Virus record (IMG/VR): IMGVR_UViG_3300026538_000054
Location: 128,285-192,284 of that record
Direction: 5' to 3' (one strand)
Source: a virus
Length of the DNA stretch: 64,000 nt
Made by a program: the position numbers and the translations under genes. Below the pieces are notes generated by a model. That model saw nothing but the letters and a program-made list of their open reading frames with translations. It made no database searches and was not told the DNA's origin. Shown here piece after piece: positions 13,669 to 49,300 of the stretch; within the stretch, counting starts at the first letter, position 1, and every line of letters starts with the position of its first letter.

Positions 13669-15285
13669 ATGGACTTCGTCTACGACCTGGCCGCCCTGGA
13701 CCAGACCGAGCTGGATGCCACCAGACAGGCGATCCTCTCCGCCCTGGAGGACTACGCTCCTACGGCGGACGTGAGACAGGGCGCGATTCACGACCTGGTG
13801 CTCGAGCTCAACGCCGTCCTTGCGCAACTGATCCAGGAGCAAGTCAACAAGGCCGAGAGCGCCCTGGGCGTGCTGGCCCTTGATGATGCGTCAACGGCCG
13901 ACCCTGCTGCCGTTGACGCCGTTCTTGCCGACTACGGCGTGAAAAGACGAGTCGCCACGCCCGCCGCCGGGAGCGCGCAGGTGGTCTTGAGCGCCTTCAT
14001 GCCCGTCACCATCCAGGCAGGGGCCGTCTTCACGGCCGGCGGGCAAAGCTACCAGTCGGTATCAACCTTTCAGGCCAGGACCTCCCCTTCGTTGGTCAGC
14101 CTGCCGACGGACCGGCTGATCACCCAGCTCTCCTCGACGCGCTGGGTGTTTACCATCGACCTCGTCTGCGCCGTAACGGGCTCGGCAGGCGCTCTACCCG
14201 CCGGCGCGCAGCTAACACCAGCCTCCCCGCCTGCCAATTTCGTCGAGTGCTACTCCAGGGAGAGCTTCTCGGGCGGCCAGGACCAGGAGACCAATGCTTC
14301 TCTTGTCGCCAGGCTGCAAGCGGGCGCGGCCGTCAAGTCGCCCGGAAATAGAACGTCCCTTGAAGGGATGGTGAGGACCTTCATCCCCGAAGCGCTTCAC
14401 GTCTCCGCCACGGGGGCCGGCGACGCCGCCATGCTCAGGGACAAGCACGGTCTCTTCCCTGGTGCTACAGGCGGCAAGTGCGACCTCTACCTGCGCTACC
14501 AGGGCGCCTATGAAGAGTCGACCCTGACCGTCACGGCCACGCTCAACTCCAAGGTCGGGGCGGTGGGGACCTGGCAGGTCGGCCTGACGCGAGACCAGGC
14601 CGCCGGTCTCTACGAAGTCAAGAAGGCCCTTCTTCCCACTCAGGCCTTTTCGGCGACGGGCTTTGCCATCAGCTACGACGCAAGGGGCGTGGACGTCTCC
14701 GGGGAGAGCTGGCCGCCTGACCTGGCGAGCCCGCTCGAAGCGACGTACTCGAGCTACCAGACGGTCGTGGTGCGCTTCGCCGACACGATCACGGACGTGA
14801 CGAGCGTCTCAACCGGAGCGACGGCGAGTTATGTCCTTGTGCTGCGAAGAATGCCCAAAATCAAGGAGCTTCAGGCCTGGTTCTCGGCCGCCGAGAGGCG
14901 ACCCCTGGCCTCCGACCTCCTGATCAAGTCGCCCGTGCCCGTTTTCTCGGCGGTCTCCTTTGATCTGGTGCTGCCCGTCTCTGCACCTACGCCCGACGCG
15001 AGCGCCGTCAAGGCGGCGGTGGCGAGCGCCGTTGCTGGACAGGGCTTTTCCGCTCGGTTGTCTGCAAGCCTTGTCGCCTCGGGCGCGCGAGCCGTTAGCC
15101 CACTGGCCGCCGTGGATAACGTCGCCCTCTCCGGCAGGCTCCGGAAGCCGGACGGCACGAACGTCTCTCTGTCAGGCTCGCAGTCCCTGGCCATCACCCC
15201 TGACGCCGCCAATATGACCACCGCCGACACCGTGATTTTCTTTCTTGTCTCTGCGGACGTGACCTACACCCTCGTCCGCGTATAG
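13669..15285 (+). CDS. Baseplate J/gp6-like wedge protein
   Basis: DVRQGAIHDLVL, RRVATPAAG, SGGQDQETNASLVARL motifs of the baseplate J family. Confidence 0.8.
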   Translation: MDFVYDLAALDQTELDATRQAILSALEDYAPTADVRQGAIHDLVLELNAVLAQLIQEQVNKAESALGVLALDDASTADPAAVDAVLADYGVKRRVATPAAGSAQVVLSAFMPVTIQAGAVFTAGGQSYQSVSTFQARTSPSLVSLPTDRLITQLSSTRWVFTIDLVCAVTGSAGALPAGAQLTPASPPANFVECYSRESFSGGQDQETNASLVARLQAGAAVKSPGNRTSLEGMVRTFIPEALHVSATGAGDAAMLRDKHGLFPGATGGKCDLYLRYQGAYEESTLTVTATLNSKVGAVGTWQVGLTRDQAAGLYEVKKALLPTQAFSATGFAISYDARGVDVSGESWPPDLASPLEATYSSYQTVVVRFADTITDVTSVSTGATASYVLVLRRMPKIKELQAWFSAAERRPLASDLLIKSPVPVFSAVSFDLVLPVSAPTPDASAVKAAVASAVAGQGFSARLSASLVASGARAVSPLAAVDNVALSGRLRKPDGTNVSLSGSQSLAITPDAANMTTADTVIFFLVSADVTYTLVRV

Positions 15286-15289
15286 GCCG

Positions 15290-15298
15290 TGGTATCCT
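15290..15298 (+). promoter_or_regulatory. Extended -10-like element TGG-TATCCT
   Basis: Just after the baseplate J stop, upstream of an operator-like palindrome and ORF 15392. Confidence 0.3.
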
Positions 15299-15311
15299 GC
15301 AAAAGCTATCC

Positions 15312-15331
15312 ATTCTTTTCCGGAAAAGAAT
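15312..15331. promoter_or_regulatory. Perfect 20-bp palindrome ATTCTTTTCCGGAAAAGAAT (operator-like, recurrent)
   Basis: Perfect inverted symmetry; related copies at 30313, 43974, 52844, 55121 and a half-site at 62612. Confidence 0.6.
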
Positions 15332-15337
15332 TGCGAT

Positions 15338-15367
15338 AAGCCCTGGCGCGGAGGGCTTTTACCGCGC
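15338..15367. repeat. Interleaved two-stem (pseudoknot-like) element
   Basis: AAGCCC-tg-GCGCGG-a-GGGCTT-tta-CCGCGC. Confidence 0.55.
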
Positions 15368-15391
15368 GGAAACACCAGAAAGGGCCAGCTC

Positions 15392-15883
15392 ATGTGGGAG
15401 TTGCTTGGCGATGCCGTATCCCTCGACGCCGCGTGGGAGCTCTGCGAGAGCGTACCGGGCTGGGCCTGGGCCGCCTCCGTCGTCGTTGCGCCCTTGGCGG
15501 GCAGGTCGATCTGGCGAACGAGCAGGGCCGCCTGGCGGTTGACCAGGGGACTGCTTGTCACCACGCCGGGAGAGCTGTGCGAAGAGATCAACAAGCAGCT
15601 CAAGAGCGCCTCACTGCTGGAGGGCGACATCGGGCTCAAGACCGCCCGGTGCTGTGTGCAGGGCAACCTGGAGCACAAGTCCTTCAAGGTCGAGCTTCTG
15701 GACACGGCCGGCAAGTGCTTCAAGGACGTCACGGAGCTCTTGACGCCGGGGGAGCAGCGGCTCCTGGAGAGGGCCCTCCAGGCCGGGATCGAGGACCGCA
15801 AGAGGAAGCGTACCGAGAAGAAGAGGGCCCTGGCGAGCCACTTCCTGACCGGGGAAGGGAACGAGAAAGTAACGGAGATCTGA
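15392..15883 (+). CDS. Hypothetical protein with N-terminal hydrophobic segment
   Basis: 163 aa ORF inserted in the baseplate module; basic C-terminus. Confidence 0.55.
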   Translation: MWELLGDAVSLDAAWELCESVPGWAWAASVVVAPLAGRSIWRTSRAAWRLTRGLLVTTPGELCEEINKQLKSASLLEGDIGLKTARCCVQGNLEHKSFKVELLDTAGKCFKDVTELLTPGEQRLLERALQAGIEDRKRKRTEKKRALASHFLTGEGNEKVTEI

Positions 15884-16338
15884 TGTTCCACGAGATGAAC
15901 AAGATGATGGGCGGTGCTGTACCGCAGACCAGCCCCGGCCCAATCGGCCGGGGTTACCAGCACGGCAAAGCGCAGGGCGATGCACTGGCCGAAAAACTGC
16001 TCGAGGCCTTCAAAGAGGCGCTGGAGCGACAATCGGGCGTCACGGAGACAAAGGACTGCGAGGACAACTGTGAGGGCGGTTATCCCTCGTGCGAACCTCG
16101 CTCAAGCTGTTCGGCCGGCACGGGCATGCCGGCCGAAAGCGGCCGGCCGATCATGCTGGGCGACGTGGTTCGCCTCAAGTCGGGCGGCCCTTCGATGACC
16201 GTGATGTCCATCGTCAGGGGCCCGGCCAACCGTAGCGGGCTGGACGTGGCCATTACGACCTGGTTCGCCGACGCAGCGCGCCAGAGCGTCGGCGACTTCC
16301 CTAGCTGTTGTCTGGAGCTTGTCCCGCGCAGCATTTAG
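15883..16338 (+). CDS. DUF2158/YodC-domain protein
   Basis: C-terminal LGDVVRLKSGGPSMTV...TTWF is the YodC/DUF2158 signature; ATG 15883 overlaps the previous TGA. Confidence 0.7.
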   Translation: MFHEMNKMMGGAVPQTSPGPIGRGYQHGKAQGDALAEKLLEAFKEALERQSGVTETKDCEDNCEGGYPSCEPRSSCSAGTGMPAESGRPIMLGDVVRLKSGGPSMTVMSIVRGPANRSGLDVAITTWFADAARQSVGDFPSCCLELVPRSI

Positions 16339-16386
16339 CCCGCTACCTAGTGTGACAAAGCCCTCCGCAGCGGGCTAAGTGCTGCG
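16327..16386. repeat. 18-bp inverted repeat made of two head-to-head copies of the pseudoknot-like element
   Basis: CGCAGCATTTAGCCCGCT (16327-44) vs AGCGGGCTAAGTGCTGCG (16369-86), one G-T; full element AGCCC-tc-CGCAGC-GGGCT-aagt-GCTGCG at 16359-86. Confidence 0.7.
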
Positions 16387-16404
16387 ACAGAGTAGACAAG
16401 CCAG

Positions 16405-17679
16405 ATGCCGTACGAGTTCCCAAACGGCGTGATCGACTCTCCGGCCGGCATGGCCGCGCTGCTAGGCACGTTCTGGGCGGCCCGGTTCCCCCACCGGGCC
16501 GATCTCTACGCCCTGATGGCTGCAAGAAGAGCGCCGGCGGCCAAGGCGGCGCTTCTTATTGACCAGCTCATGGCCGGGCTGTCGGCCGCGAGCGCTCCTC
16601 TGGAGAAGCGAGATCCGCTCTTTCTCTTCGACGCCGTCTACTCCGCCTCAGCGCCCGCACCAACGGGCGGGCAGGCCTCCAGCCCCCGGTCCAACAGGTC
16701 CTACCCGCCACCTTCTTCTCAATTCCAGGGCGCTTCCCTTCTGTTCGACAGCCCGATCTCTCCTGCACGAGCCTTGTGTCGCGGCGCGGACTTCACGGTC
16801 GGCCCTGACGGGGAGATCATCTTCCTCGACGACCCGACAGACGGGCTGGAGGAGAAGAGCTGGCTTGTTGACGCTCAACTGAGCAACAACTGGTCGAAGA
16901 CCGTCGCCGTCCGAGCCAGCGTCACGGGCCAAGTGTCTCAAGGACTGCAGCGGCTGGCCCTGGCCATCCTCAAGGCCGACTACGGCGGGCCGTCGATTTT
17001 TTGCCTTCACGAGGCCCTGGCTGCCATCGCCGACGCGCCCGTGTGTCAGGAAGACGGCGAGGTCTTTCAGTACCAGGCCACGGATAGAAAGGGCCTTCTG
17101 CTCGTCACGGACAAGCGCGTGTATCGCGCTAACTCACTGGCGACCCTCACCGTCAGCGAGGGGCAGGTCCTCAAGCAGGGAGAGTTTCTCACCGACACCG
17201 TACGCGTTCTCGCTCCGAGGTCCTCTCCACCAGCCTGGCTTACCTCTCTGCAACTTCCGGCCGAGTGGTTGTGGCCCTCTCTGGGCGGCGTGCTCACCTT
17301 CGAGAACGCGCAAAAGGCCCTGACGGTCACCTTGAGCGTTTCAGGGCTCACCAAGGTGATCTGGCCGATGCCGGATGATTCTGGAAGGGTGACCGCCTTC
17401 TTCAACCTGCTTCATGCTCAGGGAGTGGCCCAGGGCAAGTCCCTGGCCAACTACCTGGACCTGCGCCCGCAGCCGCAGGCGACTCAGCCGACGTCCGCGT
17501 CGTTGCCTGCGAGCATCAACCCCATGAGCTTGTTACTCGGCACGGTGTTTTCGTCCAACGTCCGAGTGGCGGTCTTGAAGCAAAGCGCCTTTGGCCCGCT
17601 GGCCCTTGGCACGAGTTATCTTGCATTTCTCAGGCGCTTGCTCCCGCCGGGGGCCGGCGTACTTCCCGTTCTTGTCTGA
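16405..17679 (+). CDS. Putative baseplate wedge/tail-fibre attachment protein
   Basis: 424 aa; LHEALAAIADAPVCQEDGEV...VTDKRVY pattern of large-myophage wedge proteins; precedes the fibre-like gene. Confidence 0.55.
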   Translation: MPYEFPNGVIDSPAGMAALLGTFWAARFPHRADLYALMAARRAPAAKAALLIDQLMAGLSAASAPLEKRDPLFLFDAVYSASAPAPTGGQASSPRSNRSYPPPSSQFQGASLLFDSPISPARALCRGADFTVGPDGEIIFLDDPTDGLEEKSWLVDAQLSNNWSKTVAVRASVTGQVSQGLQRLALAILKADYGGPSIFCLHEALAAIADAPVCQEDGEVFQYQATDRKGLLLVTDKRVYRANSLATLTVSEGQVLKQGEFLTDTVRVLAPRSSPPAWLTSLQLPAEWLWPSLGGVLTFENAQKALTVTLSVSGLTKVIWPMPDDSGRVTAFFNLLHAQGVAQGKSLANYLDLRPQPQATQPTSASLPASINPMSLLLGTVFSSNVRVAVLKQSAFGPLALGTSYLAFLRRLLPPGAGVLPVLV

Positions 17680-17696
17680 CCGCTGAGCGCTCTCGC

Positions 17697-18878
17697 ATGG
17701 CACTGCCGCCGGACGAAGAAGACTGCCCGGAGATGACGGCGACGCCGCCTCTGAGCTTCCTCCCTGCGGGGGCCGGCTGGTTCTGCCCCGAGAGCGGCAT
17801 GGGCTCAGGGTCGGGGCCCGATACGGACTCGTTCTACCTCTACCGCGAAGACTGCGTAGAAGGCGTCAAACGTGAGCACCGGGCCAAGATGACCATCATC
17901 GCAGGCGCGGTGAGCCAGGGCCCGTGGGAGTACGTACGAAATAACGGCTGCTGCGACTGTCCGGGCGGAGGCAGCGGTCCGGGCGGAGGTGGGGGAGGCG
18001 TGCTCACCCAGTGCTGCAAGGAGGTGGTCGGTACGCCTTTGCCGCTAACGATCACCCCTAACCCGTCGGCCTGTCCAGGTGATGGGCCGGTCACGCTTAT
18101 GGTGCCTTTTGAAGGTGCCGGCAACGGCTTTCGGATCAACTATGAGTCAAGCGACGGGCAAGTACGGGTCTCGGGGAACATCGTATGCAGTAACAAGGGG
18201 TTCGGCGTAACACGCCCGGAGACGGACCCGCCTTGCACGCCACCGCCTGGCCCGCCAGGATCGCCTGAGCCTGGCGGTTGGTTTGGCTTCAACGGGAACT
18301 GGAAGTGCGGTGCGCTTTCCGGAGGGCTCTTGCCCTGTGAAACCTTTATCCAGCACATCGAAGAATCGACGTGCCAGCCAACGTGCGTACGAATCGTGAT
18401 TGCTCCAGGGGAGGGAGGCGGGCTGATCACGCTGGAGCTTGGCTGTGGAGGCGGCGGTGGAGGCGGCGGTGGAGGCGGCGGTGGAGGCGGCGGTGGCGGT
18501 GGAGGCACCGTATGCGGCGGCAGCTTGCCAGGCCATGTCACGTTCACGATCGCGGGGGTGAGCAACGGCGCGGCCAACGGGACGTTCAACCTTCCACTGA
18601 GTACATCCGGCTGTCCGGGTTGCTCGGCCTGCAACTGCTATCGGTCCGGTGACCTGGGAGGCTACGAGTGGGTAGTACAAGCCAACCCCAATGGGGCCGG
18701 GCCGCCGCTCTTGTACGCGTTTTTCTATCAGCTGTCCGGTGGCTCAATTCAGGCGCTTTACGCCGTTAGTGGGTCCATCGGTACGCCATGGGACTGTACT
18801 TTCCCCAAGACCTTAGACCTGGCGGAGCTATCGGTTGGCACTGGCTGGCCCGCCTCTTTCGACGTGTCGGGGGCCTGA
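17697..18878 (+). CDS. Cys/Gly/Pro-rich tail fibre or receptor-binding-like protein
   Basis: Many Cys pairs (GCCDC, QCC, CPGCSACNC), poly-Gly linkers, distal beta-rich domain; last structural gene of the module. Confidence 0.45.
   Translation: MALPPDEEDCPEMTATPPLSFLPAGAGWFCPESGMGSGSGPDTDSFYLYREDCVEGVKREHRAKMTIIAGAVSQGPWEYVRNNGCCDCPGGGSGPGGGGGGVLTQCCKEVVGTPLPLTITPNPSACPGDGPVTLMVPFEGAGNGFRINYESSDGQVRVSGNIVCSNKGFGVTRPETDPPCTPPPGPPGSPEPGGWFGFNGNWKCGALSGGLLPCETFIQHIEESTCQPTCVRIVIAPGEGGGLITLELGCGGGGGGGGGGGGGGGGGGGGTVCGGSLPGHVTFTIAGVSNGAANGTFNLPLSTSGCPGCSACNCYRSGDLGGYEWVVQANPNGAGPPLLYAFFYQLSGGSIQALYAVSGSIGTPWDCTFPKTLDLAELSVGTGWPASFDVSGA
18447..18506 (+). repeat. (GGAGGCGGCGGT)x4 plus extension, encoding 20 Gly
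   Basis: 12-bp tandem unit read directly. Confidence 0.9.
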
Positions 18879-18879
18879 A

Positions 18880-19917
18880 ATGAACGTCGACGAATTGCAC
18901 GCGCGGATCGCAACCCTGGCGTCGACTCGCCCTCCCTGCCGCCATCTGGGCTCGCCGACCGGCGAGTCGAGGCCTTGCCCGAGTTGCACCGGTACGCTGC
19001 AGGTCCACCTGCGCACCTGTGTCATCCACGGGCAATGCACGGAGAGCAAGCTACTCTCGGGCGTCGAGTGCTGCAGTATTTGTAATGATCGCTCCCCGAT
19101 AGACACGCCCGTACCGATCTCAGCGAGGGAAGTGGTCGAGCCAGCCTCTCTGGTCGCCCGTTTCGACGAGAAGAATATAGCCCCCGACGTGCCGGGAAAA
19201 CGGTTCAACGGCAGCATCCTGGCCTACCAGGATGACTACCTGTTCGCCTTCAGAAACGGCTGGGCAGGCTCGGAGATCTATCTGATCCGGCTGGACAAGG
19301 ACTTCAAGCCGTACGGATCGGCCTGGAAGCTGGAGCTGCACCACAGGGAGGCCAACTACGGGCGAGAGGACCCGAGGCTCTTCATGCACCAGGGCAAGGT
19401 GCATGTCTCCTTCATCGGCGTGGTAGGCGGTCGACGCATCAGGCATACCAGTCAGCTCTACGCCAGGCTTGGCGACGACCTGCGCGTGGAGAGGGTGTTC
19501 TACCCGCACTACGAGAAGCGTAACGGGTGGGAGAAGAACTTCGGGTTCTTCTCCTTTGAAGATCAGCTTTATGCGTCTTACTCCACCACCCCGCACCAGG
19601 TCTTGAAGATTGATGGTGACAGGGCGGAGATGGTCTACAACACCCCGTTTCCTGCGCCGTGGAGCGGGGGAGAGATGAGAGGTGGTGCAGCTCCCGTCCG
19701 CGTCGGCGACGAATTCTGGTGTTTCGGTCACGACCGTATACAGAAAAACGGCGTGTGGACCTACCGTGCGCTCCTGTGGACGTTCCAGGCACGACCACCC
19801 TTTAGGATCTCCCGCTACGTCCCCTACGCGCTCTTGACGGCCGACGTGAGTACGAAACCGGCGTCGCAGTACGCGAGTGTGATCTTCCCGTGTGGCGCCG
19901 TGCTACTAAAGGGCTAG
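18880..19917 (+). CDS. Cys-rich domain plus GH130/glycosidase-like beta-propeller, N-terminal part of a split gene
   Basis: CRHLG..CPSC..CVIHGQCT..CCSIC N-terminus; REDPRLF, EKNFGFF, EMRGG, VIFPCGAV propeller motifs; stops just before the expected last strands. Confidence 0.7.
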   Translation: MNVDELHARIATLASTRPPCRHLGSPTGESRPCPSCTGTLQVHLRTCVIHGQCTESKLLSGVECCSICNDRSPIDTPVPISAREVVEPASLVARFDEKNIAPDVPGKRFNGSILAYQDDYLFAFRNGWAGSEIYLIRLDKDFKPYGSAWKLELHHREANYGREDPRLFMHQGKVHVSFIGVVGGRRIRHTSQLYARLGDDLRVERVFYPHYEKRNGWEKNFGFFSFEDQLYASYSTTPHQVLKIDGDRAEMVYNTPFPAPWSGGEMRGGAAPVRVGDEFWCFGHDRIQKNGVWTYRALLWTFQARPPFRISRYVPYALLTADVSTKPASQYASVIFPCGAVLLKG

Positions 19918-21005
19918 AGCAGATGCTTCCAGCGACTACCACGAACGACGTGCCCAACCGCGCCTTTCCGGACGCCAAGTCGGCGGCATATTTCCGTCTG
20001 CCGAACTCCAGTCGCAGCAAGGGCCCTGATCTCTCGTACCTGCGTCTCGGTGAGCGTGGCCGTCCCGTTACGCTCGCCCTTGGCGGCACCGACGACGGTT
20101 CGTGGCCCTCCGACGTGCTTCCAGGACCGCCCGTTCGCAATCAACTGCACGAGCGAGTCGCTGACGCCGAAGGCCTCGGCAACGTCGTCATGCGTCTCGC
20201 CTGCCGCCACGCGCTCCCTGATCTCGACCACTTGCGACTCGACGAGTTTGGCGTTCCCACCTCGCTCCCCTCGCGCGGTTCTCCCGTGTGTCGCCCGATC
20301 GGCGGCGTTCTCCGCTGCCGTGCCGTAGTAGAGGTTTTCCAGACGGTTGTTCGTCTTGTTTCCGTCGCGGTGGCAGCATTGCTTGTCGGGCGGGCGAGGT
20401 CCGACAAATACGCGCAGGATGATCGCGTGGACGCTGTCGGTTACTTGTCTGCTGTGGCGACACAGGCCTATCCGCTTGTAGCCCTTGCTGTTCGCTTCCC
20501 GCAGTCGTCGCCATCCGTCCTGCCCGTGAGAAGACCAGATAGTCCCGTTGTCCCCGGCAAGATATCCCGGAAAGTCGGGTACGGGCCGATAGGTTACGCT
20601 CGGGTCGAGTCGTTCCTGCTGCCGCTGCTTTCGCTTTTTGCGGCGGGGCTGTCGTCTGGTAGCAACCTGTTTGTCGCATGCGTTCTGTTTCGGCGTGCCG
20701 TAGGAGAGGTTGGACAGGTCGTTATTGCTTCTGTCTGCGTCGGCGTGTCGAACCTCCTGCCCGGCCGGACAAGGCCCCACAAAGGTACGCATGACAAGAC
20801 GGTGTACGAGGTAACCGCGACCGGACAGCTTGACCTGTCGGTAGTTGTGGCTGTCTTTCGGCGGGTGCAGTTGTCGCCAATGACCTCGCATGCGGCTCGA
20901 CCATACGCTGCCGTCGCTACCAGCCATGTACCCAGGCTCGTCCGGTACGTCTCTGTATTCAACCGTCGCGTCAAACTCAGGCATGGCTGTAGCGCCTCCA
21001 GTCAT
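19914..21005 (-). mobile_element. Free-standing homing endonuclease with two NUMOD4-HNH units and two HTH domains
   Basis: YRDVPDEPGY..VHRLV..HADADRSNNDLSNL and YRPVPDFPGY..VHAII..HRDGNKTNNRLENL, then two NAKL/TATL-x-ESQV-type HTH repeats; antisense to the host gene. Confidence 0.85.
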
Positions 21006-21048
21006 TGAGCAGAGTAGTTACCTTATTAGAACTGTAGGAGGCTTGTCT

Positions 21049-22437
21049 ATGCCGGTTGAACAGGGTTCCTGGGTCGTCTCGGCCGGTATCCACGACCGTA
21101 CGCAGTCCCTCTATCGCCTGAGTCACCAGGAACTGGAGAAAAAGCTCGTCTGGGTCTCGCCACCCCCCTGGTTTCTTCTCCGCTGGAACACCGACGACCC
21201 GCCTGTCTTCTCCTACGTAGTCGGCCAGAACGAGTACCAACTACCCGAGAGCATGAAGGGCCAGGCCGTCCTGGACGTGGGCAGCTCTTTCGGCGCTTTC
21301 CTCTTCGCGTGTCATGAAAGAGGCGCGGCGCTGGTTCACTCCTATGAGCCCTGGAAAAAGTCTCTGGCCATCTTGCGACGCAACGTCGAGCAGTTGCGCG
21401 AGAGAGGGACGACGAGAATAGTCGTCTTCGACGAGGCCGTGGGGCCCAGTGACGGCGCCGCGACCTATCACGAGGCGGCGAAGAGGTCCACGGCCTCTGG
21501 TGTAGCACTACCCGCCACGAGCGGTGGGACGCGCATGGTCTCTCTGGACAGGGCCATCGAAAGGCTCTTGACGGGCTCCGGCAAGGACCGTGTCGAGCTG
21601 GTCAAGATCGACTGCGAGGGGGCCGAATACGCGGTCCTGAGGGCCTGCAAGAGCTGGGACAAGGTAGAGCGCGTCGTCATGGAGTACCACCGGGGCCCGC
21701 AGGACCTGCCGGCCTTGTTTCAGGCCAGCGGCTTTGTTGTTTCTACCAAGGTCGATCAGGGGGACAGAGGCCATCTGTACGCCTGGAGAGGGCCGTCGCG
21801 CGCGCCCGCGGTGACTCACGCCAAGCCCATGCCACGAACGCCGCCTGCCTTTTGCATCACTTGCAGCCAGCACCCCGAACGAGGAGAGGCCGCTCTTTCG
21901 CATTTTCGAGAGCAGGGCCTTGACGTCCGGTTCTTCGAGGGGCTCTACGGCCCTGAGCTTGGCGTACGACCGACCAGAGAAGCGACGCCCGGCTACATCA
22001 TGGCGCCCGGCCACACAGGCTGTTTTCTCTCACACACGGCGCTCTGGCGAGCGCTGGCCATGATGAGCTTTGAAGAAGTCTTGATCTTCGAGGACGATGT
22101 TTCCCTTGTCCCTGACTTCAAGACGCGCCTCGCCGAGGCCATGTCCGAGCTCCCTTCCGACTGGCAATTCGTCTACGTCGGCGGGCTGTTCACCGACGCG
22201 GAAGTCAGTGAGAAGCTCTCTCAACGCGTCGGCGTGGTGCGCTACCCGAACGGTACGCACGCTTACCTGGCGAAGAGAGAAGCGATCTTGCACCTGATCA
22301 AGACCAACCAGGAAGCTCGAACGCACGTGGACATTCAGATCTCGCAGAACAGTCTGCCGGCCCTCAAGACCTACGTGCTCGTACCGACCCTTGCCCGCCA
22401 GCACACGGTGGATGGCAACTGGCCCAGCACGACGTGA
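21049..22437 (+). CDS. Propeller C-terminal strands + FkbM methyltransferase + GT25 glycosyltransferase
   Basis: AGGAGG at 21036-41, ATG 21049; GSWVVSAGIHD; LDVGSSFG..KIDCEGAE (FkbM); GCFLSH, IFEDDV, GTHAY (GT25). Confidence 0.8.
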   Translation: MPVEQGSWVVSAGIHDRTQSLYRLSHQELEKKLVWVSPPPWFLLRWNTDDPPVFSYVVGQNEYQLPESMKGQAVLDVGSSFGAFLFACHERGAALVHSYEPWKKSLAILRRNVEQLRERGTTRIVVFDEAVGPSDGAATYHEAAKRSTASGVALPATSGGTRMVSLDRAIERLLTGSGKDRVELVKIDCEGAEYAVLRACKSWDKVERVVMEYHRGPQDLPALFQASGFVVSTKVDQGDRGHLYAWRGPSRAPAVTHAKPMPRTPPAFCITCSQHPERGEAALSHFREQGLDVRFFEGLYGPELGVRPTREATPGYIMAPGHTGCFLSHTALWRALAMMSFEEVLIFEDDVSLVPDFKTRLAEAMSELPSDWQFVYVGGLFTDAEVSEKLSQRVGVVRYPNGTHAYLAKREAILHLIKTNQEARTHVDIQISQNSLPALKTYVLVPTLARQHTVDGNWPSTT

Positions 22438-22560
22438 CAGCCGGGTGAGAGGCCCAACTACCCCTTTTTCCCGGCCCCACTTCGTTCGTGGCGTAGGTTA
22501 TTGTTTATTTCTGTCCGGCGCTTGCCGCGGATGAGGTTACTAGCAAGAGGGGGCGGTTTA

Positions 22561-23103
22561 ATGTCGGAAGGCCTCGTAGCGGCCCTGATTGCAGGGGTAG
22601 CGACACTGGTAACGAGCGTAATTACAGCGGTAATCTTACTGTTAAACGCGAGGCATAAGATAAACCAGGAGAAGGAGGCCGCCGCAGTAGGGCAATATAT
22701 GGAGATCGTGAATAGACAGGAGGAGCAGATCAGGCGACTAAGCCTGCACACTGCGGAGCAGCAGTGCGCCATTACCAGTCTGTACGAGGACCATGCCGAG
22801 TGCCAGGGCCGCCTGGAGGGGATCTACACCTGGATGACTTTGTTCCACACCATGGCTGAGAGAATGGCCAAGGTCTGCAAGGCAGCCGGCCATGACCTGG
22901 GCGAAGTGCCTCCCATGCCTCCCAGGCCGCCATACAGAGAGGCCAAGGCTCGCGCAGAGGCCGTGGCCAGGGAGACGGCCCATAACACGGGCTTGTTGCA
23001 ACAGACCGGTCAGGCGACGCGCGACGCTGTCGCCGTGGCACAGGCCGCGCAACCGCCCGTGGCACAGGCCGCGCAACCGCCCGTGGCCAAGCCCGCGCCC
23101 TGA
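22561..23103 (+). CDS. Holin-like or membrane-anchored coiled-coil protein
   Basis: N-terminal TM (LVAALIAGVATLVTSVITAVILLL), coiled coil, C-terminal 24-bp tandem repeat 23035-23082 (VAQAAQPP x2). Confidence 0.45.
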   Translation: MSEGLVAALIAGVATLVTSVITAVILLLNARHKINQEKEAAAVGQYMEIVNRQEEQIRRLSLHTAEQQCAITSLYEDHAECQGRLEGIYTWMTLFHTMAERMAKVCKAAGHDLGEVPPMPPRPPYREAKARAEAVARETAHNTGLLQQTGQATRDAVAVAQAAQPPVAQAAQPPVAKPAP

Positions 23104-23116
23104 GGAGGGCCTGACA

Positions 23117-23491
23117 GTGCTCATCCTGATAGTCGAGGACCACCCCGTGACTGCTACCTGTCTGGCCGAGTTGCTAGGCCAAACAGGACACAAGACGTTG
23201 ATCGCCCCGGACGTTCGAGAGGCCGAGAAGGTGGTTGATGACTCTCACCCCGACGCCGCCATCATTGACTACTTGTTACCGGGCGGCGACGGCCTCGAGT
23301 GTTTGAAGGCCCTGCGTAAGCGGCCCTTTTTTACCGACGCGCCCGTGGTGTTCCAGACGGCCGTGGGCGACAAAGACCTGACTGACCTGGGCCGGGCCGT
23401 GGATGGCCTCGGTCCTGTCGGTTTTGTCCGAAAGCCGTGCTCGGTCGAAGATATCCTCAAGGCCCTTCGCCAGGTGGGCGCGACGCTGTGA
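23117..23491 (+). CDS. Single-domain response regulator receiver (CheY-like)
   Basis: ILIVED, AIIDYLLPGGDG, VFQTA, FVRKP: acidic pocket, phospho-Asp, Thr and Lys all present; GAGGAGGG upstream of GTG. Confidence 0.85.
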   Translation: MLILIVEDHPVTATCLAELLGQTGHKTLIAPDVREAEKVVDDSHPDAAIIDYLLPGGDGLECLKALRKRPFFTDAPVVFQTAVGDKDLTDLGRAVDGLGPVGFVRKPCSVEDILKALRQVGATL

Positions 23492-23504
23492 AAGGAAGGG
23501 CCTC

Positions 23505-23924
23505 GTGGCCAGGTCCGTTACGCTCACCAGGCAGGCGCAGCAACGAGGCACGGTCTCCGGCCTGACCGCCTACCGCACGGTCGTCACGGCCTCGGGGGCG
23601 ACGGGCGGCTCAGGCGCCGAGAACGAACTGTTCGTCCACGAGAGACTGCCAAGGGACCCTTCAGCGCCGCTGGGCCAGACGGAAGATCGCTTTCTAAGCA
23701 TTGCCACGCCTCTGGACCTGGCTGAGCTGCCCGTCAACGAGCCGAATGCTAACGCCTCGCCCACTTACTTTCGCAAGGCGACCGTCGAGCTCTGGACCAT
23801 CTCTCAAGACGAGGCCGACAAGATCTGGTCCAGCATTCAGAAAGACGTCAAGGCCCTTTTTCTGGCTTTGAAGATCGCCGACTCGTTGACTGACGAGGAA
23901 GAGGCGGAGATCACCGACGATTAG
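23505..23924 (+). CDS. Hypothetical protein
   Basis: GTG 23505 with GGAAGG upstream, within ORF 23403..23924. Confidence 0.55.
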   Translation: MARSVTLTRQAQQRGTVSGLTAYRTVVTASGATGGSGAENELFVHERLPRDPSAPLGQTEDRFLSIATPLDLAELPVNEPNANASPTYFRKATVELWTISQDEADKIWSSIQKDVKALFLALKIADSLTDEEEAEITDD

Positions 23925-23926
23925 AC

Positions 23927-24193
23927 ATGAAGGCCCTGGACGACGACACGCTGTTGGCGCTATCACGAAGGGCGGCCGCTCTGGTGGTCTTCCCTGAGCT
24001 GCGTGCCCTTCATGCCGCGAAGAGCGGGCACTGCTGCCAGGGCGGCGGGGGCCGCAAGCCCTTTGACGAACTCAAGCGGCACTTCGCCTCGTTGAGCACG
24101 GCGAAGCAGCAGGCGCTCAGGGCCCTGCTGGGCGGAGGTCCCGTCCGGGTCTACTACCAGTCGGCCACGGGCGTGAAGTTCGTTGATTATTAG
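23927..24193 (+). CDS. Hypothetical protein
   Basis: 88 aa, 2 nt after the previous stop; followed by an AT-rich intergenic region. Confidence 0.55.
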   Translation: MKALDDDTLLALSRRAAALVVFPELRALHAAKSGHCCQGGGGRKPFDELKRHFASLSTAKQQALRALLGGGPVRVYYQSATGVKFVDY

Positions 24194-24204
24194 TTCGTAC
24201 AGGC

Positions 24205-24232
24205 AACTTAAAACTGCGCCCAAACGTGTCAA
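24205..24232 (-). promoter_or_regulatory. Sigma70-like promoter TTGACA-N16-TAAGTT on the minus strand
   Basis: Reverse complement of AACTTA...TGTCAA; points into the end of the structural operon. Confidence 0.35.
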
Positions 24233-24438
24233 TATAGAGTGCGACCGCCTTAACCAGCGTCTTGCCGTCATGTGCGACTTTTGTCCCGTGGCCCTTGTTC
24301 TTCCTCTCCTTCCGTCCGAGCGATCGTTTCGCTCCAGGACAGAGAGAAAGACAAAGGGCCTCTGGACCAAGGTCGTGCGTGACGGCGGGCCTGGCTAGCA
24401 GTCGCCGACTCTGTGTTCTTTTAGGTATTGTGTATCAG

Positions 24439-24511
24439 AGCCCTCTGCAGCGGGCTAAAAGCTGCAAAAGGTATGGCGACAAAGCCCTCCGCAACGGGCT
24501 GGTTGCTGCGG
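24439..24511. repeat. Two tandem pseudoknot-like elements
   Basis: AGCCC-tc-TGCAGC-GGGCT-aaaa-GCTGCA (24439-66) and AGCCC-t-CCGCAAC-GGGCT-ggtt-GCTGCGG (24483-511). Confidence 0.7.
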
Positions 24512-24532
24512 CAGGTGTCGAAGGAGAACGCC

Positions 24533-24823
24533 ATGGCGATTCGCTACGTCGAAGACAGCTACAAGTCCGAGGGTCCGGTGTGCCATCTCAGCCTGGAGGC
24601 GGACAAGCGGTCCGAGCTGGTGGAGGGAGGCGCGGCCAGGATGATGGCCATGGAGGTGGCACGCAAACACAACTTTCCGGTCGCGGGCCACAGCAGCCTG
24701 CCGACCCCCTACCCAGTGAACGCGCAGGGCGAGATGTCCCAAGGCATCGTAAACGGCACGGAGAAGGTGGCCGCGTACCGCATCAACTACACGCTGCACG
24801 CCGGCCTGTTTGGCGGTCGGTGA
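24533..24823 (+). CDS. Hypothetical protein
   Basis: AAGGAG SD then ATG 24533 (MAIRYVEDSYK). Confidence 0.6.
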   Translation: MAIRYVEDSYKSEGPVCHLSLEADKRSELVEGGAARMMAMEVARKHNFPVAGHSSLPTPYPVNAQGEMSQGIVNGTEKVAAYRINYTLHAGLFGGR

Positions 24824-24831
24824 GCGGCCTC

Positions 24832-24858
24832 AAGCCCTTTGCGGCGGGCTAAAGCCGC
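24832..24858. repeat. Pseudoknot-like element
   Basis: AAGCCC-ttt-GCGGC-GGGCT-aaa-GCCGC. Confidence 0.65.
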
Positions 24859-25459
24859 GAAGCCAATTACGAGCGGCGGCATCAAGGCCTTCCCGTCGGT
24901 CTGGTGGACGGGGCGGAGGAATCAGAAACTCGTGACGCCAACCCTGGAAGAGCTGTCGCCCTTCATCAAGCGACTGGGGCCGTTGCGCGTCAGGTCACTT
25001 TTGCGCCTCGCCCGAAAGGGCCACGTCCCGGACAAAGAGGTGACCGGTGGTCCAGGTCGGCCGCTTGCTCCGGGCGAGGCATTGCTCTTGACAGCAGCGG
25101 CGTTTCTTTCAGCCAAGAAGGCCGTCACCGACGAGCAGCAGCAGTATCTCCTGGAGGAGATCGCGACCTCTCTCGTCGCTCACGGCAACCTACTAGCTGA
25201 GCGCCGGCGGGCAGGGTCGAAGGTCCTTCCCGTTCTGTCTTTGTGTCTGGGAGACAGGCGCCTGGCCTGGCTCCCTGGCAAAGAGGGCGTGCTGGACCTT
25301 CAGACGGGCGAGCACTTGCCGCGGCTCGATGGCCCACCCGTCGAGATCATCCAGTACGACATGGTCGCCCTCTACTTCCTGGTCGAGAAGAAGCTGGAGG
25401 AAGAACGTGCCAAGACCGCCACAGGGGCCACGTCGTCCTGTTCATCTCCTGGCCGATGA
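24839..25459 (+). CDS. Hypothetical protein (start uncertain)
   Basis: 206 aa ORF with plausible composition. Confidence 0.5.
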   Translation: MRRAKAAKPITSGGIKAFPSVWWTGRRNQKLVTPTLEELSPFIKRLGPLRVRSLLRLARKGHVPDKEVTGGPGRPLAPGEALLLTAAAFLSAKKAVTDEQQQYLLEEIATSLVAHGNLLAERRRAGSKVLPVLSLCLGDRRLAWLPGKEGVLDLQTGEHLPRLDGPPVEIIQYDMVALYFLVEKKLEEERAKTATGATSSCSSPGR

Positions 25460-26111
25460 CAACGCTTGCGCCTTGCCTCTTCTCTGCCTGTTTATTGATC
25501 GCTTCGGGACGGAAGGTCTGTCCTGGTCTCCCATCACCATCCACATGGAGCTGAGAGACGAGCTTCAAGAAGAGATCACGAGAAGCAACTTCGACAAGCT
25601 CATGGCCGGCGTGAGAGTAGTCACCGGCAACGATTTCTACAAGTCCCTGCCGGAGTTCCTCCGGCTGTGCCTGGCCCTCTCAGGCGGCCCTCCGGACGGG
25701 CTGATCGCCGACTGCGTCACCTGCGCCGTGGGCATGACGGAGGCCATGCTCATCAACCCGCCGGACGAGCATGATCACTCCACCGAGTTTTCTCCCGAGA
25801 TCAGGGCCTACCTGGGCCACGCCCTGGATCAGGAAGGCATCATGACGCCGCCCGACGTCTTGAAGCTGGCCACGAGAGACAAGGGCGACATGGCGCAGAG
25901 AGCGCGCCACGACTTCGCCGACGACCCGGAGATGTACGCCGCGGTCTTCGGCGTGGAGAAAGAGAAGACCAAAGCCATTGATCAAACGGTCCGGGACCAC
26001 GTGCGACGGCTCCTGAGTCAGCTCAAGGAGCTGCCCCTGGAGAACGGCAATGCCGAAAAAGTGGCGACCAAGTTGCTCGCCAACCTGGATAACATGCACG
26101 ACGAGGACTAG
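25407..26111 (+). CDS. Hypothetical phage protein
   Basis: GTG 25407 after GGAGG within ORF 25329..26111; globular acidic protein. Confidence 0.55.
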   Translation: MPRPPQGPRRPVHLLADDNACALPLLCLFIDRFGTEGLSWSPITIHMELRDELQEEITRSNFDKLMAGVRVVTGNDFYKSLPEFLRLCLALSGGPPDGLIADCVTCAVGMTEAMLINPPDEHDHSTEFSPEIRAYLGHALDQEGIMTPPDVLKLATRDKGDMAQRARHDFADDPEMYAAVFGVEKEKTKAIDQTVRDHVRRLLSQLKELPLENGNAEKVATKLLANLDNMHDED

Positions 26112-45990: not shown

Positions 45991-46333
45991 GAAAGAGAGC
46001 ACCGTGAGCGAAAAGAAACAAAGGCCGTGGTCGAGGTTGATTGCTGTCGCCCGCAAGGCGCAGGCGGTCATCCAGGCCGCTAATACCAACCCAATGCACG
46101 ACGAGTGGGACGACGTTGAGGCGAAGCAGGCGTTCGAGGACATCGAGTGCGCTCTCGCGGACATCGAGAAAACAGGGCTGAAGACTGACGAGCTGCCCGC
46201 CCTGGTGGAGGCGTGCCAAGCGGGCATCAAGGACTACGAGACGTACATGGACGGCAAGGAGACGTACCCCGAGTACCACCACGCCGCGATCAACCGGATC
46301 AGTCGCGCGCTCGACAAGGTCACTCAACCATAG
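45989..46333 (+). CDS. Hypothetical protein
   Basis: ATG 45989 within ORF 45935..46333; converges on the terminase stop. Confidence 0.5.
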   Translation: MKESTVSEKKQRPWSRLIAVARKAQAVIQAANTNPMHDEWDDVEAKQAFEDIECALADIEKTGLKTDELPALVEACQAGIKDYETYMDGKETYPEYHHAAINRISRALDKVTQP

Positions 46334-49300
46334 ATCGCGGCGTCGCCGTCGCGCCAGTCAGCCCCTGGTTCATCAGCGCCGCTATGCTGCTCGTTGGCCA
46401 TGTAGCGACGAGCCGAGGCCAGGTCAGGCCAGCGGCCCGTGCTCTGCCAGAGAGCGCAGCAACCGATGTTCACCGCCTGGGCGAAATCATCCGGGAACAT
46501 CGGGCTTCGGATGATCGTGTAGATGTCCGAGCCGGCGGCGGTAGGCGTCTTGTTCTCGGTGAGCGACAGGAAGTCATGGAGCAGGCCGGGGTCGTCCTTG
46601 CTCTTGAAGTCGTACTTGAAGAACCGCAGGATGCCCAGCTTGATGCAGGCGCAGGTAAGGCCCAGAGACTTCGTCTTGTCCACCTGCCAGTAGGCCCTGG
46701 GCCTTTCCGGCGTGGCCGGCTTGTAGGTCATCGTGTGCTGCCGGGCGGCGCCGATGTAGGCCACGGGGATTACGACGTCGGCGTCCAGCCCCGCCTGGAT
46801 CAGGAAGGTCTCCCTGAGGGCCCCTGCGCCCGTGTAGTCGTGGACGAGCAACCTGCAGCCGAACTGCCGCCAGACATCCAGGACGGCCTCGGCCTCTCGC
46901 AGGTGGTCATGAGGCGTTAACAGCCTCTTGCCGTAGATCACGTCGATCTGACCCGACGGCTTGATGCCCATGACGGCCAGCGTGGTGAAGCTGACCCTGT
47001 CTTCGCCGCCTCCGCCCCAGTCCACGGTCAGGATGAGCAGGTCGTAGTTTCTGGCGTGGCGCAGGACCACGGGCGACGGCTCACTGGAGTTTTCCCACTC
47101 CAGGCACCCGGCGCGGACCAGGTCCGTGATGTTCACGAGCTTGGTGCCCTGGTCGTAGCTCTCGCCCAAACACTCGTTGTAGAACTTGGCCGTGGTGGTG
47201 TTGCCGTAGCCGTTCATCTTGGCCACGAGGCTAGCCCAGTGGGCCTCGCGGGCGTAGTGAATAGGCAGGATGATTTGCGGTACGTGGTAGCCGGGAAATC
47301 GCTTGGCCAGTCTCTCCACCTTGTGGACCCATCGCCCCAGCCTGGGGTTGACCGGGCGCCCGCACTTCGAGTTGGCGCAGATGATGCCTGGGCTTTCTTC
47401 CGAGATGTCATCTCTGACCGGTCCAATCATGCGCTCCAGGTCGTAGCCCGCCGCCGGGACGTTGATCTTGTGGCAGACCAGGCACGGGATGCACCACTCC
47501 GCCTGGGAACTGCTGGTCCAGGCCCAGTGCAGGGTGGTGTCCAGGGTCTTGGGCGTCCCGGAGTAGATCTTCGCTCGCCAGGTGCTAGCGGAAATGGTCT
47601 CGTTAACGACGGCGAGAAGACCTGGATCAAAGTTCTGGCAGTTAGACACCCCGATGCCATTCGCCACGAAGGTGTGCGTGCCTTCAACCTCGATGTCGAA
47701 GACGTCGTGGACCCCTACGTCTTCGATCCGGACGAGGTCGGCCACAGCGAGGCCGTCAGCCGGGTGAACTCGTCCGAGAAGGTCGCTCTCTTCTCCTCGG
47801 AAAGGTTGTCTCTCTTGAGCATCATCCGCAGATAGCTCAGCCGCACCAGCATGACCGCCCGCTTCGGCTTGCAGTCCTGGCAGGACCACTCGGTCGCGCG
47901 CGGCAAGCCTGTCTTCTTGGCCCGGTAGGTGGCCTGGTAAGCCTTGAGCTTCTCTGGGTTCTTCTTGTTCCACGCCGCCTGTTTCGCCCTGACTGCTTCG
48001 CGATCGACGGGCCTCGCCTTTTTCTTCGCTCGCGCGGCCTCCTGCCGTTCCTTGGCTAGAGGATGGGCCTTTTCGTTCGCGTACCAGAGGCGACGTCTGG
48101 CGATCAGACAGGAGTCGCTGCCGCAGCACCAGTAACGGATCTTTTTCTTCCACACCGCCTGGTGGCCCTTTGACGGGAAGTTCTTGCCGCAGAAGTGGCA
48201 GTCGGCCGTCTCCACTCTGCCAGACGTGTCCAGCTTGTAGTACATCGACGGAGGCGTGAAGTCCTCCAGGATGCGCATCAGTCGAACGGCGGAGGACGTT
48301 TTGAACATCACCTGGGGGTAGGTCTTTTCCTTGACCTTGGCCGCGTACGTCGAACACGTGAAACCGTTCGTGAAGATCCGGAGGCCCGGCGTGCAGCCGA
48401 GCTTCGTGTGGGAGCCGTCGTCGGCCACCCACCACGCCAGGGCCTGGAGCAGGTTGGTCTCGTCGATGGCCTTCAGCCACGCCTCCGTGACCGTCTTCAC
48501 GCCCCCTGGGTAGCACAGCTCGCGCCAGTATTTGAGCTCCGAGGTGACGACAGTCCAGAACCTGACCGACCTGTGCCCGAGTTTGTTCTTCTTCGAGAGC
48601 GATGGTACGCCAACTACGAGCTCGGACAAGCAGATGTACTTGGTCCAGAGGTACTCGGCCTGCTTGGGGCTGTGGTTGATGGCGAAGTAGCCTTCCGGGC
48701 TGATGTACCCGTCGCCCAGCAGCGTCCCCAGAAGCAGGGCCTTCTGCTCCATGTCCAACGGCCTCTTCTTGGCGATCTCGATCTCGGCCAGTCTCGTCTT
48801 GCGCTCGTCGGGAGGCAGCTTCGACGATCTGGGAAACACGAAGCCATCCGGCACTCGTGGCCACGAAAGAGTCTGAAGTAAGGTCAACGTAGGTCCCCTG
48901 GGAGGTGTGAAGTCGGTAGCATCGTCGACGACCGTGCCATGATGATTCCACCACTCGTCGGTAGACGATACGGCCGTCCGGATCGAAAGATTCCACCTGG
49001 TCGCCGACAACGACGTCCCGAATCAAGAGGCGGCCCCTGGAAGTCATGACCCAGGTCGTGTCGCCTCTGGCGCTTTCGTCTATCCCAATTAGCTCAGATG
49101 GGATACCGCGGATTCGCTCAGCGTCGGTGAACGCGTAGGAGCAGAAGATCCTTGAGAAATTGCAGAAGCTGCGCTGGAGGACCGAGTTCTCGGTGTCAGG
49201 GCCCACCCAGGCCGAGCGCAAGGGGCTCGTCTCGATGAAGGGCCTGAGATACTGCGTCGAAAAGCGCCTGATCTGCTCGAAGAGGGGCGTGATGTACAGG

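Follow-up and report, generated by a model that had tools for sequence, protein, structure and literature searches.

The closest described parallel to the locus analysed here is nrdA-a/mobE/nrdA-b of Aeh1 (Friedrich et al. 2007, cited in PMC2988022; Crona et al. 2011, PMC3045599), where mobE splits nrdA between two adjacent beta-strands, the active-site residues are divided between the two chains, and the enzyme nevertheless works (PMC3045599; PMC2988022). Other phage enzyme genes that are translated in separate pieces at sites of free-standing endonucleases are T4 gene 39/60, with mobA, and 43A/43B of Aeromonas phages 25 and 44RR (PMC2988022); in 44RR the gene 43 split persists without an endonuclease gene (PMC2988022). 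A related arrangement is that of the 'fractured genes' (Dassa et al. 2009, PMC2677866), in which the two gene halves stay in place and in order on either side of a free-standing endonuclease gene and are equipped with split-intein halves. T4 segD, which lies between genes 23 and 24, is oriented against the surrounding operon (PMC2988022). As for the enzyme, the GH130 phosphorylases and mannosyltransferases (Lin0857, 5b0p; Teth514_1788, 9fj8; Leishmania MPT, 6q4x) are five-bladed propellers, and more than 99% of the classical GH130 phosphorylases are single-module proteins (PMC7660257).

We have analysed a 64,000-nucleotide stretch, the window, of the IMG/VR virus record IMGVR_UViG_3300026538_000054. 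The explanation that we favour, with a probability of roughly 0.6 for the whole of it, is that a free-standing homing-endonuclease cassette has settled in a glycan-modifying gene, which would now be expressed as two chains that reassemble non-covalently. The features of the locus are the following.

18880..19917, plus strand: proximal half, 345 aa; a Cys-rich N-terminus, then blades 1 to most of blade 5 of a GH130-like five-bladed beta-propeller
19914..21005, minus strand: endonuclease gene, 363 aa; two tandem NUMOD4-like plus HNH_3 modules, then helix-turn-helix domains
19915..21066, no strand assigned: inferred insert, 1152 nt (384 codons), consisting of TAG, the antisense endonuclease gene, a 43-nt spacer and six codons (MPVEQG)
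21006..21048, no strand assigned: AT-rich spacer, 43 nt; on the opposite strand it is the upstream region of the endonuclease gene
21049..21150, plus strand: propeller tail of the distal protein; the last two beta-strands and a helix, with a near-invariant G-x-H-D-R motif
21274..21699, plus strand: FkbM-type methyltransferase domain, residues 76-217 of the distal protein (PF05050, 34.6 bits against a cut-off of 22.7)
21847..22332, plus strand: GT25 glycosyltransferase domain, residues 267-428 of the distal protein (PF01755, 56.8 bits against a cut-off of 24)

The proximal ORF opens with the ATG at 18880 (an in-frame TTG lies at 18835), and its product ends in FPCGAVLLKG before the TAG at 19915-19917. 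An initial annotation of this DNA had described an antisense HNH gene that splits a propeller gene, and everything that it described is present. This includes the CTAG (19914-19917) common to the stops of the upstream ORF and of the endonuclease gene, the latter stop being the reverse complement of 19914-19916, and a downstream ORF in the same frame opened by AGGAGG and an ATG (18880 and 21049 are each 1 mod 3). The distal ORF runs from 21049 to 22437 and encodes, in this order, the propeller tail, the FkbM methyltransferase and the GT25 glycosyltransferase; its product begins with MPVEQGSWVVSAGIHD. Calls for it differ, with 515 aa from 20890 in NCBI and 462 aa in JGI, Logan and ENA. Independent sources supply 5 to 7 contigs with the same three proteins, up to 199,824 bp in length, which rules out an assembly chimera or artefact. 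One variant was seen, on an ENA contig of this phage, 87.8 kb long: its proximal half is missing ten residues, the near-invariant Pro-His among them, and its distal gene is represented only by a called fragment of 125 aa. This could be decay or poor assembly.

Like nrdA/mobE, the locus has a free-standing HNH-type gene that splits a contiguous enzyme gene between adjacent beta-strands, neither intron nor intein, a separate stop and start for each piece and, as read from the sequence, conserved active-site residues that would fall on different chains. Unlike in Aeh1, the endonuclease gene runs against the split gene, the break lies inside a blade of a beta-propeller, and the host gene encodes an accessory glycan-modifying enzyme rather than an essential replication enzyme; moreover, the insert-derived tails are 0 and 6 residues long here, while those of Aeh1 are essential for activity. 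Compared with T4 39/60 and 43A/43B, both the host genes and the endonuclease families are different, and neither a bypass element nor an untranslated intercistronic module was recognised in the locus. In contrast to the fractured genes, there are no split-intein halves, and tails of 0 and 6 residues exclude protein trans-splicing. The antisense orientation had been called unusual; it is indeed uncommon, but T4 segD provides a precedent (PMC2988022), albeit between two genes and not within one. The comparison with Aeh1 drawn by the initial annotation holds in three respects: the gene is contiguous in relatives, an endonuclease gene lies between the pieces without an intron or intein, and the pieces have start and stop signals of their own. 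Judged by its sequence, the case is a further example of the known genes-in-pieces layout.

Contiguity of the gene in relatives is well documented. The proximal half has 2044 homologues. About 210 of 220 homologous proteins run unbroken through the split point, as do 27 of 28 distinct other loci, the 27 being drawn from viral contigs and from Gemmatales, Nitrospira and other MAGs. The uninterrupted homologues that had been proposed as a check therefore exist and support the splitting of a once-contiguous gene, and the distal ORF is, as had been expected, the continuation of the propeller. In the continuous homologues FPCGAV is followed by five residues and then by W..S.G.HDR; the spacing from GAV to W is exactly five residues with the pattern L-x-x-G-x, which LLKG together with the S before W fits. 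MPVEQG has no counterpart among 81 aligned homologues, and in local BLAST and MAFFT comparisons with both fused and propeller-only homologues the distal protein, from residues 3-8 onward, directly continues the proximal end. Uninterrupted propeller-FkbM forms are common, and a single protein (P0150) has the full propeller-FkbM-GT25 order; many relatives have FkbM and GT25 but no propeller, and the way in which the domains are combined is fluid. A search for close relatives of the proximal protein drew none from IMG/VR and only one 46%-identical locus from JGI metagenomes, a nucleotide search of a phage collection gave no match, and a word-based search with the distal protein returned three remote matches among those listed and no partner halves.

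The propeller itself is a distant relative of GH130. The proximal ORF has no Pfam match at E <= 0.01 and falls short of PF04041 by its own sequence; however, PF04041 matches are precomputed for many of its homologues and the family profile matches GH130 phosphorylases in the PDB (E 7e-8), and we therefore regard it as GH130-like. A Foldseek comparison of a homologue model with beta-1,2-mannoside phosphorylases gave E 4e-13 and a TM score (target) of 0.68-0.70 to 9fj8 and 9gph. The R-E-D-P-R-L-F and G-x-H-D motifs align to E-D-P-R and Y-G-x-A-D of GH130, motifs of the F-x-C-G-A ... Y-G-x-x-D type align as well, and the family thus has the five-bladed propeller, the E-D-P-R acid and, by presumed equivalence, the C-terminal Asp of the GH130 fold. 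It differs from GH130 in its extra Cys-rich N-terminus and its frequent fusion to FkbM, and the window's own sequence reaches no Pfam model. The Asp of the tail aligns with that of YYG-x-A-D in GH130 structures and probably corresponds to the substrate-site Asp D304; the role of the GH130 C-terminal Asp is taken from PMC7660257.

In the AlphaFold2 model of the homologue P0005 (pLDDT 91) the break maps to the turn, a loop at the surface, between strands 359-367 and 370-377 of the last blade, and the tail aligns to residues 370-395, that is, strands 370-377 and 381-388 and helix 389-395. Because the break falls in the turn of the last blade, two strands, a helix and the near-invariant Asp are left on the distal chain. 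When the window's own frame was modelled as a read-through chain, the tail had a pLDDT of 94-97 and the same secondary structure as in P0005; since continuous homologues made up the alignment behind this model, it speaks for compatibility with the fold and not for assembly in trans. Supply of the last propeller strands in trans by the distal polypeptide, as the initial annotation proposed, fits the modelled structure.

The spacer at 21006-21048 has a GC content of 42%, as compared to 63% genome-wide, and AGGAGG (21036-21041) stands 7 nt ahead of the ATG at 21049. Of the 159 AGGAGG sites in the genome only 15 stand ahead of an ORF start, and a Shine-Dalgarno sequence of this strength is mostly absent from the neighbouring native genes. 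Each piece of the gene is thus predicted to have its own translation signals, the TAG at 19915 for the one and AGGAGG-7 nt-ATG for the other, and we infer that the gene is made as two polypeptides. A new Shine-Dalgarno and ATG had been suggested to rescue the distal half: the signals are there, but rather than evolving later they were probably brought in by the cassette, because the spacer DNA is AT-rich and insert-like.

The endonuclease matches PF13392 (HNH_3) with 87.6 bits in two stretches against a cut-off of 24.8, has HTH_23/HTH_31 matches as well, and matches phrog_59 'HNH endonuclease' at 1e-66. Singly, the two HNH_3 modules score 53 and 42 bits in the genome search, both above the cut-off; they are 40% identical to each other (E 9e-28), and an alignment displays the His/Asn motif residues in both. 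No second HNH_3 gene was found in the 193-kb record. Translation could alternatively start at the second ATG (20984; 356 aa), with GGAGG 10 nt upstream. The nearest relatives are only 38-42% identical, and those in IMG/VR do not exceed 47% identity, over part of the protein, and none of them lies beside a propeller gene. Searches for an endonuclease-free allele of the phage, for a sigma-70-like promoter of the endonuclease gene, and for a target-site duplication or terminal repeats around the insert found none.

Taken as a mechanism, the reading that we favour starts from a phage of about 199 kb, linked to Gemmataceae-type Planctomycetes, in which the host gene of the cassette encodes three domains, the GH130-like propeller, the FkbM methyltransferase and the GT25 glycosyltransferase. 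The cassette, made up of the tandem-HNH_3 gene and its short AT-rich upstream region, is oriented against this gene and interrupts it precisely within the codons for the hairpin turn of the last blade. What the endonuclease recognises is probably the conserved DNA that codes for FPCGAV in unbroken alleles, and homing would spread the gene during co-infection. The proximal ORF stops at the first codon of the insert, and the distal ORF starts from insert-derived spacer with a strong ribosome-binding site of its own, which would yield a distal chain that consists of a six-residue foreign tail followed by the last two propeller strands, the helix and the conserved Asp. This hairpin may dock back non-covalently into the 345-aa proximal fragment, so that one chain would both complete the propeller and tether the methyltransferase and glycosyltransferase to it. 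For the reassembly of this phage's two chains, as judged from sequence and models, we see near even odds.

The same hairpin is broken elsewhere in the family. Scans of IMG/VR with the homologues P0021 and P0009 did not recover the contigs that encode these two proteins, but the one with P0009 turned up a phage, L040, in which the gene is in two pieces at this hairpin; its 960-nt insert is unlike that of the window and has no Pfam, PHROG or Rfam identity that we could find, and no HNH_3 gene was found in the L040 record (CheckV 100% complete). The initial annotation had named homologues that are two separate genes without the HNH gene as the observation that would count against it. L040 is one; the roughly 210 of 220 proteins and 27 of 28 other loci are continuous. 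L040 is not the window's sister and its insert is different, so the unsplit gene is the ancestral state. Five more homologous proteins terminate within the same turn (four of the five are known from protein ends alone), with no match when truncated homologues were sought in pairing with endonuclease matches, and P0002 has an in-frame insertion of about 47 aa there. The turn of the last blade appears to tolerate disruption, as P0002, L040 and the five truncated proteins indicate. Split forms are scattered on the family tree, with six changes for seven split rows; at least three of the changes are forced by well-supported branches, and a single origin of all the splits was rejected. L040 and P0004, at 82% identity, have their break in common; differences between them fall on 3 of 75 conserved columns as against 41 of 158 others (Fisher p = 2.4e-5), and at the level of sequence the N-terminal half is clearly under constraint in this split lineage. 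One broader reading, which we hold only tentatively, makes the hairpin a permissive split site that has been hit repeatedly and independently by different mobile inserts, giving two-chain enzymes by fragment complementation, with the FkbM chain (here with GT25) delivering the last two strands and the substrate-site Asp.

The strongest competing account, though in our judgement an unlikely one, is that the insertion killed the propeller and the new start rescued FkbM-GT25 alone, the proximal ORF being a young pseudogene that has yet to decay and the tail a harmless leftover. FkbM and GT25 do without a propeller in many relatives, as described above, the 87.8-kb ENA contig lacks the near-invariant Pro-His of the proximal half, and the chains have no interaction tails of the kind known from Aeh1 NrdA. 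Yet the proximal ORF retains 40 of the 41 positions that are at least 90% conserved in the family (family median 39), and the tail retains every highly conserved residue (G, H, D and R). Nor is the start codon placed nearer to FkbM: it directly precedes the tail. The constraint on the proximal half in the independently split L040/P0004 lineage also counts against a dead propeller.

A somewhat less probable alternative bears solely on how the arrangement arose, and fits a working propeller as well as a dead one: the break came first, complete with stop, spacer, Shine-Dalgarno and ATG, all of which could predate the HNH gene, and the endonuclease settled later in the intercistronic gap. In its favour, L040 is broken in this hairpin although a search of its record found no HNH_3 gene, and the T4 review raises the same doubt about seg43 in phage 25 and gives intergenic regions as the usual insertion sites (PMC2988022). 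However, nothing in the 1152-nt insert is left over once the endonuclease ORF, the 43 nt upstream of it and six codons are counted, the stops overlapping in CTAG are most simply the product of one event, and L040 is no sister of the window and carries an unrelated insert.

Finally, removal of the interruption, whether from the RNA by a group I or II intron whose ORF is antisense or from the protein by a split intein, to give one polypeptide is suggested by the common frame of the two ORFs but is very improbable, since no Rfam intron was found at E <= 1 on either strand of 18000-23000, only 43-64 nt of the insert lie outside the endonuclease ORF (the flank is as short as the initial annotation held when it argued against a group I intron, at 43 nt, or 64 nt from the second endonuclease ATG, instead of about 44), which leaves neither an intron core nor room for one, a stop at the first insert codon and a strong Shine-Dalgarno with ATG stand at the two ends, and, with the endonuclease ORF filling the insert, non-homologous tails of 0 residues (proximal, ending within the native turn) and 6 residues (distal) are too short for intein halves.

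What, then, does the locus mean? Gene callers list three unrelated genes here, and the true architecture of the enzyme is hidden. The known working genes-in-pieces encode essential replication enzymes (ribonucleotide reductase, topoisomerase and DNA polymerase); here the pattern would reach a multi-domain enzyme of accessory function that modifies glycans, and also a split within a blade of a beta-propeller, where the other chain contributes what is probably an active-site residue. If the halves do reassemble, they form a natural fragment-complementation pair for a propeller enzyme. Should the hairpin indeed be a permissive split site, propeller activity would be available only when both chains are made, and the family would combine a beta-propeller enzyme that is split in nature with a hotspot, beyond the usual replication genes, for repeated homing or insertion. 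This hairpin, which is broken in several unrelated lineages and in one of them with no HNH_3 gene found, could serve as an example of structural tolerance and mobile-element targeting jointly setting where a gene is split.

Relatives of the propeller encoded by the proximal ORF were collected by a full HMMER search, which returned 2044 sequences. In these relatives the match to the proximal end directly adjoins the match to the distal protein from residues 3-8 onward (local BLAST, MAFFT), with a common pattern across the break: FPCGAV, five residues (L-x-x-G-x) and W..S.G.HDR. The DNA itself agrees: in 27 distinct loci, taken from viral contigs and from MAGs (Gemmataceae, Gemmatales, Nitrospira and others), the site is uninterrupted. 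Since both the homologues and these loci are continuous through it, the window carries a contiguous gene split by an insert, as the initial annotation had proposed. Genes around the split locus run on the + strand:

13669, + strand: Baseplate_J / wedge gene
16405-17679, + strand: gene without annotation
17697-18878, + strand: gene without annotation
18880-19917, + strand: proximal ORF, C-terminal end FPCGAVLLKG, then TAG
19914-21005, - strand: endonuclease ORF, its TAG stop read from a CTAG common to the proximal ORF's stop
43-nt spacer between the endonuclease ORF and ATG 21049: GC 42% versus 63% for the genome
21036-21041: AGGAGG, 7 nt upstream of ATG 21049
from ATG 21049, + strand: distal ORF, 462 aa, in the frame of the proximal ORF, with FkbM (PF05050) and GT25 (PF01755) domains

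Two further details of the initial annotation, the stops shared within one CTAG and the AGGAGG-ATG restart in the proximal frame, are thus confirmed. The source is a 193-kb IMG/VR record of class provirus with an estimated completeness of 93%, and the same proteins are present on contigs from NCBI, JGI, ENA and Logan, the longest being 199,824 bp. Elsewhere in the window, PHROG matches to the large terminase (46327-49590, - strand; 1088 aa) skip about 480 residues, after the ATPase N-part and before the rest.

LLKG and the Ser preceding Trp match the native turn pattern and nothing corresponding to MPVEQG is present in any of 81 aligned homologues, so by alignment the insert would extend over 19915-21066 (1152 nt); no repeats bounding it were found. 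Nor is this a 'fractured gene' of the split-intein kind (PMC2677866), because the non-homologous tails at the broken ends are just 0 and 6 residues long. The argument that there is too little room for an intron also held: the endonuclease ORF leaves only 43-64 nt beyond it (about 44 nt had been given), and no Rfam match at E <= 1 was found on either strand of 18000-23000.

The window's own propeller sequence has no Pfam match; many homologues carry PF04041, and the family profile matches GH130 beta-1,2-mannoside phosphorylase structures (E 7e-8). An AlphaFold2 model of the homologue P0005 (pLDDT 91, pTM 0.82) retrieves GH130 phosphorylases in Foldseek (E 4e-13). In this model a turn of two residues, joining strand 359-367 to strand 370-377, holds the break. 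The chain then continues with another strand (381-388), a helix (389-395) and, after a linker, the FkbM domain, so that the distal protein is predicted to begin with the last two propeller strands and a helix. The Asp of the G-x-H-D in this tail (21049..21150) aligns with that of the GH130 Y-Y-G-x-A-D motif. In GH130 enzymes the C-terminal Asp (D304 in UhgbMP) lies at the +1 subsite and is conserved in >99% of sequences (PMC7660257), and by its position the tail Asp is probably this D304-type residue.

The domains of this enzyme family vary greatly in their order and in how they are fused: the propeller occurs alone (about 390-410 aa), commonly with FkbM (about 600-670 aa), with GT25 (P0045) or with both (P0150). 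The homologue P0349 has GT25 placed before FkbM.

The endonuclease protein has two HNH_3 matches well over the Pfam cut-off, helix-turn-helix matches and a strong match to PHROG endonuclease families. Its nuclease modules form an internal tandem duplication, each NUMOD4-like plus HNH_3 (40% identical, E 9e-28), with the His/Asn motif intact in both; most relatives, at about 200-250 aa, contain a single module. One molecule of such a two-headed HNH protein might suffice to cut both strands. Its closest relatives among 5.8 billion proteins searched are 38-42% identical, and no other HNH_3 gene was found in the record. The GC3 of the gene, 0.70, is somewhat lower than that of most neighbours (0.77-0.82). 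Most native genes of the block 13669-26111 have no recognisable Shine-Dalgarno sequence, which is present at both genes at the insert (the distal ORF, and the endonuclease if counted from its second ATG). Of 159 AGGAGG sites in the genome, moreover, just 15 lie upstream of an ORF start, so the distal ORF's start signals look as if they belonged to the foreign DNA. In the NCBI annotation the distal gene begins at ATG 20890 (515 aa), in other pipelines at 21049; the longer version overlaps the 5' end of the endonuclease gene on the opposite strand, lacks a ribosome-binding site and shows no homology upstream of residue 54.

Do the halves work together? Of the 41 positions conserved at >=90%, the proximal half retains 40 (family median 39), and all highly conserved tail residues are retained. 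A model of the window's own frame as one read-through chain of 1185 aa (insert included, Gly in place of stops) was built with an alignment of continuous homologues: the proximal half and tail form the expected strands at pLDDT 94-98, and the junk linker is disordered. As the alignment guides it, this model shows fold compatibility only. The hairpin turn itself tolerates disruption, since the homologue P0002 (502 aa) has a roughly 47-aa in-frame insertion, with a zinc-ribbon-like CPSCGRRF motif, in exactly the same turn. Conserved residues, read-through model and tolerant turn all speak in favour of halves that would work together; against this, the tails are far shorter than those essential to RNR activity in Aeh1 (PMC3045599). 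No close relatives of this allele were found in IMG/VR, JGI metagenomes or the phage collection. In an 87.8-kb contig of this phage from ENA, the proximal half has lost exactly 10 aa (30 nt; PHQVLKIDGD, window 19591-19620), among them the near-invariant Pro-His, and the distal gene is called only as a 125-aa C-terminal piece. This variant could be the split gene decaying in a sub-population, or poor assembly.

Of 220 homologues, four end inside the turn, a fifth diverges just past it, and truncation at another place is seen in just one. One further split, in the 98-kb IMG/VR phage L040, was read at the DNA level:

L040 proximal ORF: C-terminal end GAMPLGGDE, then stop
L040:4590-5548, + strand: insert of about 960 nt with unrelated, unannotatable small ORFs
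L040, 4610 and 5362: 37-nt direct repeats that bound the insert
L040 distal ORF: MPPREW start, then VLSCGIHDR..., into FkbM

An 18-codon ORF overlaps the L040 proximal stop through ATGA. Within L040:6350-8824, FkbM and GT25 lie in different genes, separated by three ORFs of which one encodes a DUF433 protein; the GT25 gene also carries a fused Methyltransf_24 domain. Seven rows count as 'split' in a tree built from 215 propeller domains; they require six changes, the only sisters among them being L040 and the homologue P0004, and the hairpin has therefore been broken repeatedly. These two share a break and are 82% identical, with differences at 3 of 75 conserved columns versus 41 of 158 others (p = 2.4e-5), so the proximal half has stayed constrained in this lineage since the split.

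The initial annotation had also considered that homologues without the HNH gene might be two genes as well. The 27 loci are unbroken; L040, however, is split, with no HNH_3 gene found in its whole 98-kb record. The endonuclease may accordingly have moved into a gap already existing in the gene, an origin discussed for phage 25 gene 43 (PMC2988022).

The closest known system to the split gene in the window is Aeh1 nrdA-a/mobE/nrdA-b, from which it differs in that the endonuclease is antisense to its host gene, the host gene is accessory and multi-domain, the break lies inside a propeller blade and the tails are minimal. The antisense orientation stands as first described; it is uncommon, but segD is a precedent for an antisense free-standing endonuclease gene (PMC2988022). 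The most useful new observation is the recurrent break at one hairpin.
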